This document shows, piece after piece, positions 6,001 through 12,000 of a DNA stretch of 64,000 bases. Position numbers: made by a program. This DNA is from Candidatus Omnitrophota bacterium (lineage in GTDB: Bacteria > Omnitrophota > Omnitrophia > Omnitrophales > Aquincolibacteriaceae): the NCBI GenBank assembly GCA_035352955.1, contig DAOPYQ010000001.1, forward strand, positions 37,536 through 101,535, read 5' to 3'. Each line of letters opens with the position of its first letter. The first letter of the stretch is position 1.

Positions 6001-9000
6001 GTTCTCCCGGGCGGAGCGAAAGGGCGAAAAAGGTGTGGCTGATCGTGGCGATTTCACTCAATGTTTTTGCCCTGTTGTTTTTTAAGTACGCCAATTTTTT
6101 TGTGGATCAGATTGAACCATTGCTTCGTTTCGCAGGCAGGGGAAGGCCTTCCTGGTATGGCGTGGCCCTTCCCCTCGGAATATCGTTCATCGCCTTTCAT
6201 AAGATCAGCTTTGTAGTGGATCTCTACAAACGGCGGATTACTCCCCCGGCCAATTTTAAAGACGCACTTCTCTACATCCTTTTTTTTCCGCAGCTGATCG
6301 CCGGTCCGATCATCCGGTATCATGAGATCGGTCCGCAGATCGAAACCCGTACGCATAGCACGGAGGATTTTTTGATCGGGTTTTTCCGGTTCTCCCGCGG
6401 TCTTGGCAAAAAAGCGCTCTTAGCGGACCCGGCGGGCGTCATTGCCAATGCGGTCTTCGGCATGGCTCCCCAGAGCCTTCCGTTTTCTTACGCCTGGATA
6501 GGAGTCATCGCTTATGCGGTTCAGATCTATTTTGATTTTTCGGGATATTCTGACATGGCCATAGGTCTCGGCCGGCTTGTGGGATTTCGTTTTCCGGAGA
6601 ATTTTAATCAACCTTATACGGCGAAAAGTATTACGGAATTCTGGAAACGGTGGCATATCACGCTTTCCAACTGGATGCGGCTTTATCTTTACATCCCGAT
6701 GGGGGGGAATCGGGTTGAACCGTGGCGGATGTACCTGAATTTATGGATCGTCTTCCTGCTCTCGGGTCTTTGGCACGGGGCGGCCTGGACCTTTGTTTTA
6801 TGGGGAGCTTACTACGGCTTTTTTCTCACGTTGGAAAAATTTTGCGAGAGGCGCGGCTGGACGTTTTCCGTTCCCGGGGTGATCAAAAATCTTTGGACAT
6901 TCCTGGTTGTTCTGAACGCCTGGGTGTTATTCCGGGCTCCCACGATCGATTATGCGCGCTTGTTCCTGGGGCGAATGTACGGGATGCTGTCGCAATCGCA
7001 GCCGACCAGCGAGCCTTTTGCCCTGATCTTTCCGCCGCATGATCTGGCCGTGACACTGATCGGCTTGCTGATCGCTATGATCCCTTTGCCGGAAGCAGTC
7101 CGGCGTTTGGGGGCGATCCGGGATTCTTCGATCCTTGACATGACCCGGTGGGGTTTTGGCGTTCTTTTGTTTTGGGTGGCCCTTTCGGACATCCTGGCTT
7201 CCGGGGTCAGCTCGTTTCTTTATTTTCGTTTTTGAGAGAATTTTTGATAAGCAATACAACCATAAACTTGGGCGCTGTATGAAAAAGATAGCGTTGCTTT
7301 TGCCGGTCATCATCGTTCTGATCCTCTGCGAGATGGGTTTTCGCGCTTCTTATATTCAGGAACAAGATCGATTGCGTTTAAAGTATGAGGGGAGATCGCT
7401 GTGCCTTGAAAGTGACGAGGCTTTGATCTATACGGCGATCCCGGGGCGTTGTGGTGCGAATTCGCAAGGTTATTTTGACGCCGAACACTCTTTTGTGAAG
7501 CCGAAGGATGTTTTCAGGATCGTTATTATCGGAGATTCCATCGCCCAGGGGCAGGGAGTGGGACGGGAGGAATCTTTTGGCCGGGTCCTGGAAAAAAAGC
7601 TGAATGCCGCGCAGAATAAAAAAAAGGTTGAAGTGATCATCTTGGCCCTGACGGGTTATTCGACGAGCCAGGAATTAATCCTGCTGCGGGAGCAGGCGTT
7701 TCGGTATGATCCGGACATGATCCTCTGGAGTTATGTCTTGAATGATCCCGCCCATCCCTTTTTTCACGATGCGAACGGCGAATTAGGCCGGTATTTTTAT
7801 AAGCCGCGAAGCTACCTGCTGCATTATGTTTCCGCCCGGTTTTTCAATGCCCGAGAACGGATGAGATGGAAGGCCCTTCATTCCGAGGGCATGGAGTTCC
7901 ATGTTTTTTTAAATACGGTTTATTGGGACGAGGTTAAGGCCGATCTCGGGGCGATAGGCAAAGTTTCAAAAAAGAAAAAAATACCCGTTCTGTTTGTGAT
8001 CCATCCCGTGTTCAAGAAAGACGGAATGTTTGACCGGTATCCGTTGACTGTAGTCCACGAAAAATTGAAAGAGTATGTTCTTCTCCAGGGGTTACGGCCG
8101 CTTGATCTGCTAGGGGCCTATCAAGGCTACCGCTCCGAACAACTGAATCAGGGCCCCGAGGATCCCTGGCATCCGAACGCGAAGGGGCATGAAGTGGCCG
8201 CAGAGGCTATTTCTGAGGCTGTCCTGAAGGGCGATTATATAAAATGATCTATCCACAATCTTTTCGAGAACGGATATGCTGTCTCTTCCTGTCTGATTGC
8301 CGCGTCGGAAGGTGAGAGGTTCGAGCAAGCATCCTCGGTCGGGGGTTGGAGAATGCAGCGCGTTTTATTGTGTGCGGCGAAACTTAGGGAGGCGACATGA
8401 AGGTAGTGATTCTTGCGGGAGGTCTTGGGACGAGACTTAGCGAAGAGATGGAGGTTTGTCCGAAACCGATGATCGAGATTGCCGGGAAGCCTATCCTTTG
8501 GCACATTATGAAGTCCTATTCTTATTATGGATATAACGACTTTGTGATCCTTCTCGGGTATAAGGGGTACGTGATCAAAGAGTACTTTTCGAATTATTTC
8601 CTTCACCAAAGCGATGTCACGATCGGCCATATCGGGACCTCGAGTTTTTATCCGCCCCATCATATCACCACAGGGGAAGGCGGGGCCGTCTATAGGATGT
8701 CAACCTGGGGCAGAGCGCGGCACTTCCTAAAAAAAGAAGCAAGGGCTTAAATGATTAAATTTCTGGATCTTGAAAAAATTAATATGCAACATGCTGTGGA
8801 GTTCAAGCGAGCGGCTGCCGAAGTTATTGACTCTGGCGGGTATGTGCGAGGTGAAAGGGGTAGGCGCTTTGAAATTAACCTCGGAAATTTTATCGGCGTA
8901 ACGCATGCCGTTGGAGTTGCGAACGGCTTGGATGCCTTGCGTTTAATCCTAAGAGCTTATATCGATATGGGGAGCATGCGGGAAGGCGATGAAGTCATTG

Positions 9001-12000
9001 TGCCCGCCAATACCTTTATCGCTACGATTCTTGCCATCTCTGAAAGCAGGCTGAAGCCCGTTCTGGTGGAGCCAGATCTCAACACTTACAATCTTGACAT
9101 TTCCTTGATTGAGCGCTCCATTACCCGGAGGACTCGGGCCATTATGGTGGTGCATCTGTATGGGCAGGTGTGCTGGGACGAAAAGTTGAAAGATATCGCA
9201 AAAAAATACGATCTCAAACTTATCGAAGACAATGCCCAAGCCATAGGTTCGATATGGGGTGGTAAGCGGAGCGGCTCTTTGGGCGATGCGGCGGGAAACA
9301 GTTTCTACCCCACCAAGAATCTTGGCGCTCTTGGAGATGCAGGCGCTGTAACCACAAATGATGCCCTGCTTGCCGATCGGGTTAGAGCATTAGCCAACTA
9401 TGGCAGTGCAAAAAAGCATCTATGCGATTTTCAGGGATTTAACAGCCGTCTGGATGAAATTCAAGCCGCCTTTCTTGATATCAAACTTAAATATGTGGAT
9501 GCCGAAAACAAGCGCCGTCGCGAAATCGCGAAATTCTATTCTGAGAACATAGACCACCCTGAAATTATTTTACCTCATGGTAAGAATTCGTCGCTTTTCT
9601 CGTTGCCCTTCGCACTTTCGCACGTTTGGCATCTCTTTGTAATTAGAACCAAATATCGTAATAGACTTCAGAAACACCTTGAAGCGAATGGCATCCAGTC
9701 ATTAATCCATTACCCTGTCCCGCCGCACAAACAGCTTGCTTATAAAAAATGGAACACGAAGAAACTAAGGATTACTGAAAAAATACATAAAGAAGTGCTG
9801 AGTCTGCCGATGAGCCCCGTGATGGACGCTTCGGAGTGCGCGCGTGTTGTGAAAACGATAAACGATTATCAACGTCTCGGGTGATACCAGCGAGGAGAAT
9901 TTCTTGCCCTTTTAAAAGCGTGCGGATCGGCTGAAAGGGGACTTCTTCGGGCTTTCGAAGTCAGCAATTCGTTTTAACTAAAAATTATTTGGAGCGGAGG
10001 CGACTGATATGAATAATTATTTCATTCATCCAAAAGCGGATGTGCAAACAAATGATATTGGAAATGGAACGAGAATATGGCAATTTAGCGTGATCTTGCC
10101 AGGAGTAAAAATTGGCTCAAATTGTAATATCTGCGCACATTCTTTTATCGAGCCCAATGTTACTATTGGAAATAATGTGAGTGTCCACATAGGAGCATCA
10201 GTTTCTTCCAGCGTTATTTTAGAGGATAATGTATACGTTGGCCCTGGTGTTAGGTTTACTAATGACCGGCATCCTCGAAAGGGGCAGCCTTGGGAACCGA
10301 TGGGGTCATTGGTGAAAATGGGTGCTTCAATTGGTTCTAACTCAGTCATTCTGCCGGGGATTACGATCGGTTGCAATGCTCTTATTGGTGCTGGAAGTAT
10401 TGTTACAAAAGACGTTAAAGACTACAGCTTGGTATTCGGCAACCGTGCAAAATTTAAGCATTGGATATGTTGTTGCACTAAAAGGCTTATTTTTAATTCA
10501 AAAGCCTCGGCTTTCTGTGCTTGTGGAAGACAGTATCTATTAACTTCTAAAAATACTGTTGAAGAAGTCATCCTACCTATGCCGTAGTGGCGATAGAGCT
10601 CGAGAACTTGGTTCGTTGGAGGCGTCGTTCCGGGATGCTGAAGCGGCAAAGAACGTGTGATTCGCCATGATTAAATGTTTGTCTAAAATAATGGGTGATT
10701 AAATATGCAAAAGGACAAAACGGCTGGGGCTGTTTCTATGTCGCCGGAGTTGATTAACCTTCCTAGAGTCGAAAACCCTCGGGGGAATCTTGCTATCATC
10801 GAGGAAGAGAAACACATCCCTTTTAAAATCGAGCGTGTGTATTGGGTCTACGATGTTCCCGGAGGTGAGGCGAGGGAAGGGTATGCTCTTAAAGAACAGC
10901 AGGAACTTATTGTGGCTCTTTCGGGGAGTTTCGATGTGTTAGTGTCCGATGGCAAGGTAAAACGATTCTTTACGCTCAATCGTTCCTACCAGGGACTTTT
11001 CCTGCCCGCTTCTTTGTGGCGACAAATGCGGAATTTTTCAACAAATTCGTTAGCGTTGGTGCTTTGCTCGTCCCGTTATGATCCGGAGGATTATATCCGT
11101 GATTATCAGCTATTTCTCAATTACCTAGGTCATCATGAAAAATAGTATGCGCGACTGCCGGTTGCTTCCTCTTGGAAAAATTAATAATAGTATTGGGAAT
11201 ATGACTGTCGTTGAAGACGTTGGGAGTCTTCCTTTCAAGGTGAAGAGAGTTTATTATCTTTGTGATGTTCCCAGTGGTGAAAAACGAGGGGGGCATGCTC
11301 ATCGTGAACTCAGTCAATTGATAATCGCTGCCGCCGGATCGTTCGAGGTGCTTTTGGATGATGGGAAGCATCAGGAGACCGTCGTGCTGAGCCGGCCGGA
11401 TTATGGATTGTTGATCGTACCCGGCATATGGCGAGAATTGATGCGATTCTCTTCGGGGGCCATTTGTCTGGTGCTTGCTTCGATGGTCTATGATGAAACT
11501 GACTATATTAGAGATTATAAAAAATTCATAGAATCAAAAGCATGATTTTTCGTCGTTGGGATCTAAAATACGGCTGCTTTTTTCGCTCTTTATCTTCGCG
11601 AAAGAGCAAGCTGGTTTCGCAACACGTTTGTGAGCTCTAGCGTTCGGTTTTTTAAAAAAGATTGTGGAAAAAAAGAAAATATGGAAAAACCGCTTATTAC
11701 TTTTGCCCTGATGGGATATCAGCAAGAGCTGTTTATTCGCAAAGCGATCGAAGGCGCGTTCTCGCAGACCTACGAGCCTCTTGAGATTATTCTCTCGGAC
11801 GATTGTTCGCAGGATCATACTTATGGCGTTATGCAGGAAATGGCGGAGGCCTATAAGGGATCGCATAAGGTGATCTTGAATCGCAATGAAAGAAACCTTG
11901 GTATTGGGGGCCATCTCAATCAGATTGCGAAGTTGATGGGCGGGAAATGGATCGTGACAGCCGCCGGTGATGATATCTCATTGCCGGAGCGTGTGGAAGA

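Follow-up and report, generated by a model that had tools for sequence, protein, structure and literature searches.

Why should a bacterium keep two tandem cupins of the sugar 3,4-ketoisomerase family when one of them has no catalytic histidine? The question is raised by a four-gene module at positions 8751-11545 of a 64,000-nucleotide stretch of DNA, referred to here as the window, from Candidatus Omnitrophota bacterium (assembly GCA_035352955.1, contig DAOPYQ010000001.1, positions 37,536 to 101,535 of the forward strand). We propose, with a probability of about 0.6, that the isomerase of the window is a heteromer of both cupins, in which the second copy is catalytic and the first is a non-catalytic partner donating a swapped strand that includes its Arg26. 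This reading is drawn from gene fusions of the two cupins in other genomes, from the predicted template modelling score (pTM) of 0.87 of an AlphaFold2 (AF2) model of a fused member, and from the coupled decay of arms and barrels in divergent relatives.

The four-gene module

The module consists of the following genes (lengths in residues, profile E-values in brackets).

8751-9884, plus strand: pyridoxal phosphate-dependent C3 aminotransferase of the QdtB/FdtB/WlaRG type, 377 residues (DegT, PF01041, 4.9e-98)
10009-10587, plus strand: left-handed beta-helix (LbH) N-acetyltransferase of the FdtC/FdtD-N-domain class, 192 residues (Hexapep, 2.7e-22)
10705-11145, plus strand: cupin copy 1 (c1 type), predicted non-catalytic partner, 146 residues (FdtA, PF05523, 2.1e-45)
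11135-11545, plus strand: cupin copy 2 (c2 type), predicted to serve as the catalytic 3,4-ketoisomerase subunit, 136 residues (PF05523, 1.2e-49)

An earlier note on this DNA had recognised in the module an FdtB-like aminotransferase, an FdtC-like LbH acetyltransferase and a tandem pair of FdtA-like cupins. This identification holds for all four open reading frames (ORFs), coordinates included. The aminotransferase covers positions 5-359 of the 360 positions of the PF01041 profile and contains the SFYPTK lysine motif in its translation; its top solved relatives are 7n63 (1.8e-128), WlaRG (5u1z, 2.6e-128) and QdtB (3frk, 2.1e-105). It has the features of a C3 aminotransferase acting on the deoxythymidine diphosphate (dTDP)-linked 3-keto-6-deoxyhexose, the regiospecificity being predicted. 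Among the solved relatives of the LbH protein are the N-acetyltransferase 7s43 (1.6e-48, over query residues 4-139), the N-terminal domain of FdtD (4mzu, 6.5e-45), WlbB (3mqg) and QdtC (3fs8). Against a PF05523 cut-off of 23 bits, copy 1 scores 154.2 bits and copy 2 scores 167.9 bits, the latter over profile positions 2-129 of 131. The top solved relatives of copy 2 are WlaRB (5tpu, 5.9e-33), HCAN_0198 (7n67, 1e-32) and FdtA (1e-30). We predict that the module encodes the last three steps of the dTDP-3-acetamido-3,6-dideoxyhexose pathway, that is, the 3,4-ketoisomerase, the C3 aminotransferase and the N-acetyltransferase. Neither rmlA nor rmlB, both already reported missing in the earlier note, occurs among the scanned ORFs of the window.

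The two cupin ORFs share 11 nucleotides (ATG at 11135, TAG at 11143-11145), and their products are 43% identical over 123 gapless residues. Judging by homology, the true start of copy 1 is more likely the ATG at 10738 (Met12). The gene order in the window is aminotransferase-LbH-c1-c2; the usual order in related loci is c1-c2-(LbH)-aminotransferase. A programmed frameshift joining the two ORFs was considered and rejected, as their overlap, CATGAAAAATAG, contains no X XXY YYZ heptamer in the frame of copy 1. Genuine cupin-cupin fusions in other genomes have linkers of 25-45 residues and are not frameshifts.

The LbH protein carries a Cys-rich C-terminal tail (residues ~150-192, HWICCCTKRLIFNSKASAFCACGRQY...) past the region aligned to 7s43. 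This tail may be a metal-binding or zinc-ribbon-like extension.

Catalytic residues of the two cupins

In FdtA, His49 is the proposed base, and His49 and His51 are reported to be strictly conserved in sugar 3,4-ketoisomerases; FdtA dimerises through a domain swap, with strands 2 and 3 joining the sheet of the other subunit (PMC2943079). Position 95 (FdtA numbering) is His in inverting enzymes and Arg in enzymes that retain the C4 configuration (PMC2943079). The corresponding elements of the window cupins are listed below.

10780-10791, plus strand: arm motif Arg26-Gly-Asn-Leu of copy 1 (CGG GGG AAT CTT), equivalent to Arg15-Gly-Ser-Leu in the swapped strands of FdtA
10873-10893, plus strand: degenerate catalytic motif R-E-G-Y60-A-L62-K of copy 1 (AGG GAA GGG TAT GCT CTT AAA)
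11294-11302, plus strand: catalytic pair His54-Ala-His56 of copy 2 (CAT GCT CAT), aligned to FdtA His49/His51

Copy 1 aligns by phmmer to FdtA (2PA7) without gaps over 131 residues (E-value 3e-28), REGYALK standing opposite RGFHAHK, with Tyr60 in the column of His49 and Leu62 in the column of His51. The motif of copy 2 is RGGHAHR, in alignments to 2PA7 and 5TPU that are likewise gapless. A misalignment of the motif is ruled out by the gapless alignments of both copies to FdtA, to WlaRB and to each other, and the earlier note was right in placing Tyr and Leu at the two histidine positions of copy 1. Another residue kept in copy 1 is Tyr46, equivalent to Tyr37 of QdtA.

The arm reads ENPRGNL in copy 1 and NNSIGNM in copy 2, which has I/H/H/R (Ile20, His54, His56 and Arg100) at FdtA positions 15, 49, 51 and 95. 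Its Ile20 follows Ser19 and is neither basic nor aromatic, leaving copy 2 with neither Arg nor Tyr at arm position 15/17. As judged from its residues, copy 1 is a member of the fold family that falls outside the catalytic definition, having neither His49 nor His51, and copy 2 agrees with the catalytic definition of the FdtA/QdtA family in all but the arm residue and is predicted to be catalytic. A complete catalytic set in each gene, as in a pair of the WlaRA/WlaRB type, is absent: copy 1 has no histidines and copy 2 no arm Arg. At the position of FdtA His95, copy 1 has Arg106 and copy 2 has Arg100, by an empirical rule the signature of retaining enzymes, so the label Qdt fits the module better than Fdt. 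The idea in the earlier note that the His-less copy could control the choice between the gluco and galacto configurations finds no basis in these residues, both copies having Arg at this position (PMC2943079).

The copy 1 protein is encoded by 100% identical DNA in five assemblies or samples of different sources: NCBI GCA_035403665.1 (a Candidatus Omnitrophota metagenome-assembled genome, MAG), ENA, JGI and two Logan runs. No variation was seen among these. Thus the substitution in copy 1 is real, and an assembly or sequencing error as the source of the His loss is ruled out.

Copy 2 has a peculiarity of its own in Cys43 (codon 11261-11263), which changes YYLYDVP to YYLCDVP; the residue is Tyr in 80 of 80 orthologues, Phe in FdtA and Thr in QdtA. 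This is the sole deviation of copy 2 at columns conserved in at least 97% of sequences.

Pairing and fusion of the two cupins in other genomes

Relatives were collected from one genome per species (at least 592 relatives), and the best 80 loci were examined. Besides Omnitrophota, the c1-c2 module is found in Bacteroidota, which contribute most of these loci, and also in Planctomycetota, Verrucomicrobia, Ignavibacteriales, a Deltaproteobacteria MAG and Syntrophomonadaceae. At each of the 80 loci a c2-type cupin comes directly after the c1 orthologue, usually with overlapping stop and start codons, and in about ten of them c1 and c2 form a single ORF of 290-308 residues with a linker of variable length. 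A database search with one fused protein gave 4649 matches at E<=1e-40. Among the matches listed, 120 of 120 are fused proteins (270-393 residues), domain 1 having H-x-F/Y and domain 2 having H-x-H.

The c1-then-c2 layout also occurs in loci L086-L090. The window pair shows all marks of this module: adjacency, the P-R-G-N-L arm in c1, and H-x-H without Arg15 in c2. Unfused first cupins without histidines are known from other lineages, with Y-x-Y (P0376), L-x-L (P0377), Y-x-C (P0369) or R-x-L (P0289) in place of the histidine pair. As in the window, the gene after each of these four overlaps it and encodes a cupin that has H-x-H and lacks Arg15.

The AF2 model of a natural fused member, built from a 68-sequence alignment, has a predicted local distance difference test score (pLDDT) of 89 and the pTM of 0.87 given above, with disorder confined to the linker, which suggests that the two cupins pack in a fixed way. 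When compared with the PDB by Foldseek, the fused model gave single-domain matches only (template modelling score relative to the query, TMq, <= 0.44), each of its domains resembling a whole protomer of FdtA, WlaRB or HCAN_0198 (score relative to the target, TMt, 0.88-0.94). No solved two-cupin member of the family was found in this Foldseek search of the PDB, the solved members being single-cupin chains (homodimers) or LbH-cupin fusions. In the AF2 secondary structure of the fused member, the strand equivalent to swapped strand 2 of FdtA, at the start of which Arg15 is located, comprises residues 17-23.

Larger fusions occur as well. For instance, P0241, P0244 and P0264 (650-667 residues) combine two cupins with a DegT aminotransferase in a triple fusion, and the first cupin of P0244 and P0264 lacks His49. 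P0294 is an FdtD-like fusion of LbH and cupin domains.

Division of active-site residues between the cupins

Every domain was mapped to FdtA positions 15 (the Arg of the swapped strand), 49, 51 and 95. Positions 15/17 and 95/97 reportedly set the stereochemistry of the product, and hence are in the active site, according to work by Thoden and colleagues in Biochemistry in 2015. The QdtA mutant 4zu7 (Y17R/R97H) is an example in which position 15/17 was engineered jointly with 95/97. In addition to the close clade, we considered a divergent set of 48 two-cupin proteins, each representing a cluster at 50% identity. The residues are distributed as follows.

Close clade, 80 unfused pairs: c1 has R/H/(F or Y)/R; c2 has (A,K,E,S,T,N)/H/H/(mostly R), with Arg15 in 0 of 80
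Divergent set, 48 two-cupin proteins: N-terminal domain with Arg15 in 44 and His49 in 8; C-terminal domain with His49 in 48 (H-x-H in 46, H-x-N in 2) and Arg15 in 1

In the first cupin the arm Arg occurs in 77 of 80 orthologues, in each of the 120 fused proteins and, among the 48 divergent N-terminal domains, in 44. Conservation of the N-terminal arm, P-(K/R)-x-x-D-x-R-G-N-L-(S/T)-F, extends over the whole divergent set, and the C-terminal arm is mostly unrecognisable. In the His-less N-terminal domains of this set, position 49 is occupied by R, I, E, Y, A, P, M, D, G, C, Q, W, K, S or V. Such a variety, with at least 15 residues, indicates that the position is no longer under catalytic selection and does not hold an alternative base.

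The decay of the two domains appears to be coupled. A basic (R/K)-x-G-N-L motif in the C-terminal arm is found in five of the eight proteins with His49 in the N-terminal domain, vs five of the 40 without it (Fisher p=0.006, a value that is indicative only, the clusters not being phylogenetically independent). Coupled decay of the c2 arm and the c1 barrel is expected if each arm serves the barrel of the other cupin.

In a subset of c2 domains (L072, L077, L078 and L088), Ala, Ser or Gly stands at the position of FdtA His95 (G-I-W-A-S/A-E-Q), a pattern that matches the signature of neither retaining nor inverting enzymes.

A recent change in copy 1 of the window

The database relatives nearest to copy 1, 119 in number (64-75% identity), come from Bacteroidota, Marinimicrobia and others, and almost all have R-G-G-H-A-F/Y-K, with the first His kept and Phe or Tyr at the second position. 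The nearest non-identical protein, found in a search of 5.8 billion clusters, is ~75% identical. Every one of the 80 unfused orthologues and of the 120 fused proteins has the equivalent of His49, as do 119 of the 120 closest hits of copy 1, which makes the window copy the sole His-less member among 320 close-clade sequences (319 relatives and itself). Its motif differs from R-G-G-H-A-F-K by three single transitions, GGA>GAA, CAT>TAT and TTT>CTT, giving R-E-G-Y-A-L-K. The clade had H-x-F/Y already in its ancestral state, so what is recent and specific to this lineage is that one invariant His was lost, along with the changes G->E and F->L. The claim that copy 1 lost a His-x-His pair is therefore correct as to the loss of histidine and overstated as to the pair.

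The extent of decay was gauged by counts of conserved columns and by a relative-rate comparison with copy 2. Of the 65 columns with a conservation of at least 90% across the clade, copy 1 keeps 57, including the whole P-R26-G-N-L arm. The ratio of c1 to c2 distances is 0.89 for the window and 0.86 +/- 0.065 for other genomes, which ranks the window 25th of 81. By these measures copy 1 has no sign of general decay, and only the catalytic motif appears to have been specifically hit.

A proposed heteromeric isomerase and its alternatives

The arrangement that we propose would work as follows. The barrel of copy 2 would supply His54, His56 and Arg100, lacking the arm Arg of FdtA, and the P-R26-G-N-L arm of copy 1 would complete this active site by a strand swap of the FdtA type. 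The reciprocal site, composed of the copy 1 barrel with Tyr60 and Leu62 and the copy 2 arm with Ser19-Ile20 and no basic residue, would be dead. The composite site would have R/H/H/R at FdtA positions 15, 49, 51 and 95, which is the signature of WlaRB, so we predict dTDP-3-keto-6-deoxy-D-glucose as the product and, after amination and acetylation, dTDP-linked 3-acetamido-3,6-dideoxy-D-glucose (dTDP-Qui3NAc). Together with the heteromer itself we infer that Arg26 acts in trans, that copy 1 is inactive and that the product has this stereochemistry. A heteromer is the simplest model for the adjacency and fusion of the two cupins, for the arm Arg being kept in His-less barrels and lost in H-x-H barrels, and for the coupled decay. 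Of the roles suggested for the His-less copy in the earlier note, that of a non-catalytic partner is thus favoured by the 80 of 80 adjacent loci, the fusions, the split of Arg15 and His and the recurrence of His-less first cupins, evidence that bears on it indirectly.

Several observations weigh against this reading. QdtA works with Tyr at position 15/17, so an Arg supplied in trans is not strictly needed for catalysis, and copy 2 might work alone, as a homodimer. A basic arm residue is missing in 12 of 81 c2 sequences including that of the window, and the other 11 stand beside a c1 that keeps its His; the coupling is therefore statistical rather than absolute. Sequence conservation is higher in the c1 than in the c2 clade (the mean distance ratio of 0.86), which is unusual for a mere scaffold and suggests that the H-x-F/Y site of c1 normally has its own function, lost in the organism of the window. 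The position of copy 1 as the only His-less sequence of its close clade also fits a recent inactivation, and its deviation at eight of 65 conserved columns is the highest of 81 sequences (median 1, next 6).

The same 12 of 81 sequences rule out that the loss of the basic arm residue of copy 2 is unique to the window.

The last two of the adverse observations lead to the alternative that copy 1 is an incipient pseudogene, inactivated not long ago, whose relatives catalyse a reaction of their own at the H-x-F/Y site and which has had too little time to decay since the loss. We regard this as an unlikely explanation, yet one to be taken seriously. Apart from the absence of an invariant His and the excess of deviations in copy 1, it would account for three single-transition substitutions within a motif of seven codons, and the region is in flux, with a low-GC (guanine plus cytosine) segment (0.45 vs 0.51-0.53), 94% repeats and a rearranged rfbF/rfbH relic beside the module. 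It is opposed by an ORF with neither frameshift nor stop, by the 57 conserved columns and entire arm motif that copy 1 has kept, and by a divergence that is not elevated relative to copy 2. Further, His-less first cupins are stably kept, even in fused form, in at least 40 divergent 50%-identity clusters, which indicates that loss of the His does not normally entail loss of the domain.

Two further explanations would make copy 1 an enzyme in its own right, now or formerly. Tandem 3,4-ketoisomerases for the fucose and quinovose configurations exist and are solved (5tpv, WlaRA, and 5tpu, WlaRB), and the relatives of copy 1 keep one His and could be active; the window might thus encode two independent homodimeric isomerases of different stereochemistry, copy 1 being a dead or variant form of the second. 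This is improbable, because neither the c1-c2 fusion in thousands of proteins nor the complementary loss of Arg15 and His49 is expected of independent homodimers, the galacto signature (His95) is found in neither copy, both having Arg95, and copy 1 of the window has no base. Still less credible, in our opinion, is an active isomerase or epimerase in which Tyr60, or Tyr46, would take over as general base or acid, a form of the other role put forward in the earlier note, that of an isomerase with a different general base. Tyr is the acid/base in related cupins of the RmlC type, it recurs at the His49 position in other lineages of first cupins (L086 c1, L088 c1, P0248, P0257 and P0277), and copy 1 has kept the equivalent of QdtA Tyr37. 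However, H->Y and H->R are the two single transitions of a CAY codon, R is the commoner of the two, and position 49 of related first cupins holds at least 15 different residues; Tyr is never used there in the immediate clade of copy 1, and the arm of the partner, copy 2, offers no basic residue to such a site. The idea of a different general base is hence not supported.

Returning to the heteromer, the distribution of residues allows a broader proposal, to which we give slightly better than even odds. A widespread class of 3,4-ketoisomerases may consist of obligate heterodimers or fused pseudo-dimers, in which the first cupin provides the arm Arg and the second the His pair, and in which the reciprocal site has degenerated many times independently. 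The window would then be a case of fresh His loss, and the H-x-F/Y site of the clade, which may have a distinct activity or stereochemistry, would here have been given up. No description of a heteromeric or two-cupin (bicupin) 3,4-ketoisomerase was found in the literature searched, from which key structural papers were absent, and the novelty of the proposal is unproven.

If the proposal is true, thousands of annotations as "sugar 3,4-ketoisomerase" or "FdtA/QdtA family cupin" are wrong, half of these proteins being non-catalytic partners. The family would also offer a natural series from a symmetric homodimer to an asymmetric pair of enzyme and pseudo-enzyme, with two sites, one and a half, and one. 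Finally, predictions of Qui3NAc or of its galacto counterpart, 3-acetamido-3,6-dideoxygalactose (Fuc3NAc), in the glycans of Bacteroidota and candidate phyla would need a composite signature in place of one read from a single gene.

Genomic context of the module

The module lies in an 8.1-kb segment with a GC content of 0.452, flanked by DNA with 0.505 and 0.533. A gene of glycosyltransferase family 2 (GT2) is also present downstream. The neighbouring features are the following.

7156-8247 and 16371-17351, plus strand: GDSL/SGNH hydrolase genes bracketing the cassette, the two copies of a 976-bp direct repeat (7278-8253/16382-17357, 94.2% identity)
8397-8750, plus strand: chimeric ORF of 117 residues, ending exactly at the start of the aminotransferase gene
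12645-14987, plus strand: polytopic membrane protein of 780 residues with a C-terminal DUF7024
15000-15998, plus strand: GT2 polyprenyl-phosphate glycosyltransferase, PgfS/ArnC-like (NF047588 PgfS, 3.2e-86; ArnC PRK10714, 8.1e-50)
17408-19927, minus strand: STT3/PglB-like oligosaccharyltransferase

The bracketing 94.2% repeats and the low GC content suggest an inserted or recombining cassette. In the chimeric ORF, residues 1-77 correspond to the glucose-1-phosphate cytidylyltransferase RfbF (TIGR02623 positions 1-77 of 255, 2e-39) and residues 71-101 to an interior segment of RfbH/DegT (NF011936 positions 206-236). The ORF resembles what would remain of a cluster for a cytidine diphosphate (CDP)-linked 3,6-dideoxyhexose (rfbF...rfbH) after its collapse by an internal deletion.

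The PgfS/ArnC-like enzyme probably consumes the nucleotide sugar of the module, a link that we infer. Its homologue directly follows the aminotransferase gene in seven related loci (L002, L004, L019, L022, L024, L034 and L041), and its presence both there and in the window suggests that the sugar is loaded on polyprenyl phosphate for transfer outside the cytoplasm. The genes at 12645-14987, 15000-15998 and 17408-19927 hint at lipid-carrier-mediated, possibly protein-directed, glycosylation in this Omnitrophota bacterium. The other scanned ORFs of the window have housekeeping functions: transketolase, gamma-glutamyltranspeptidase, an ABC transporter, thymidylate synthase, superoxide dismutase, ATP synthase, EF-Tu and ribosomal proteins.

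In several related loci (L002, 7759-9686; L087, 1940-3241; L089, 4335-5285) other genes accompany the LbH gene beside the cupin pair or stand in its place, among them an ORF of 328 residues without a Pfam match, an ATP-grasp protein and a radical-SAM protein. This suggests that the 3-amino sugar receives varied N-acyl groups or further modifications in these loci.

Comparison with known systems

The window cupins share the PF05523 family and the cupin fold with FdtA of Aneurinibacillus thermoaerophilus (2PA7), copy 2 keeping the equivalents of His49 and His51 and copy 1 that of Arg15. FdtA is a homodimer with Arg15, His49, His51 and His95 in every chain, whereas the window splits these residues over two paralogous chains. 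In addition, FdtA has His95, associated with inversion and the galacto configuration, and the Arg of both window copies predicts retention and the gluco configuration.

WlaRA (5TPV, TDP-fucose) and WlaRB (5TPU, TDP-quinovose) of Campylobacter jejuni 81116 are tandem cupin paralogues in a 3-amino-3,6-dideoxyhexose cluster, as in the window. Copy 2 matches WlaRB better than any other solved protein, and the R/H/H/R of WlaRB equals the combination of the copy 1 arm with the copy 2 barrel. Unlike the window pair, in which copy 1 is devoid of a base, WlaRA and WlaRB are named in the PDB as separate enzymes with different products, and we know of no report of a heteromer of the two.

QdtA of Thermoanaerobacterium thermosaccharolyticum (4O9E) resembles the window system in being a retaining (gluco) enzyme with Arg at the equivalent of position 95, within a pathway of the QdtB/QdtC type. 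It differs in being a homodimer, with Tyr17 in place of Arg at the arm and H-x-H in every chain. FdtD/WxcM (4MZU), which combines an LbH N-acetyltransferase with a 3,4-ketoisomerase, shows that the enzymes of this pathway are prone to fusion; FdtD joins the acetyltransferase to one cupin, whereas the window has two cupins and a separate acetyltransferase gene. Thus the Qdt/Fdt route, the PF05523 cupins and the chemistry of the module are ordinary and known, and what is apparently new is the quaternary solution with a recurrent pseudo-enzyme partner.

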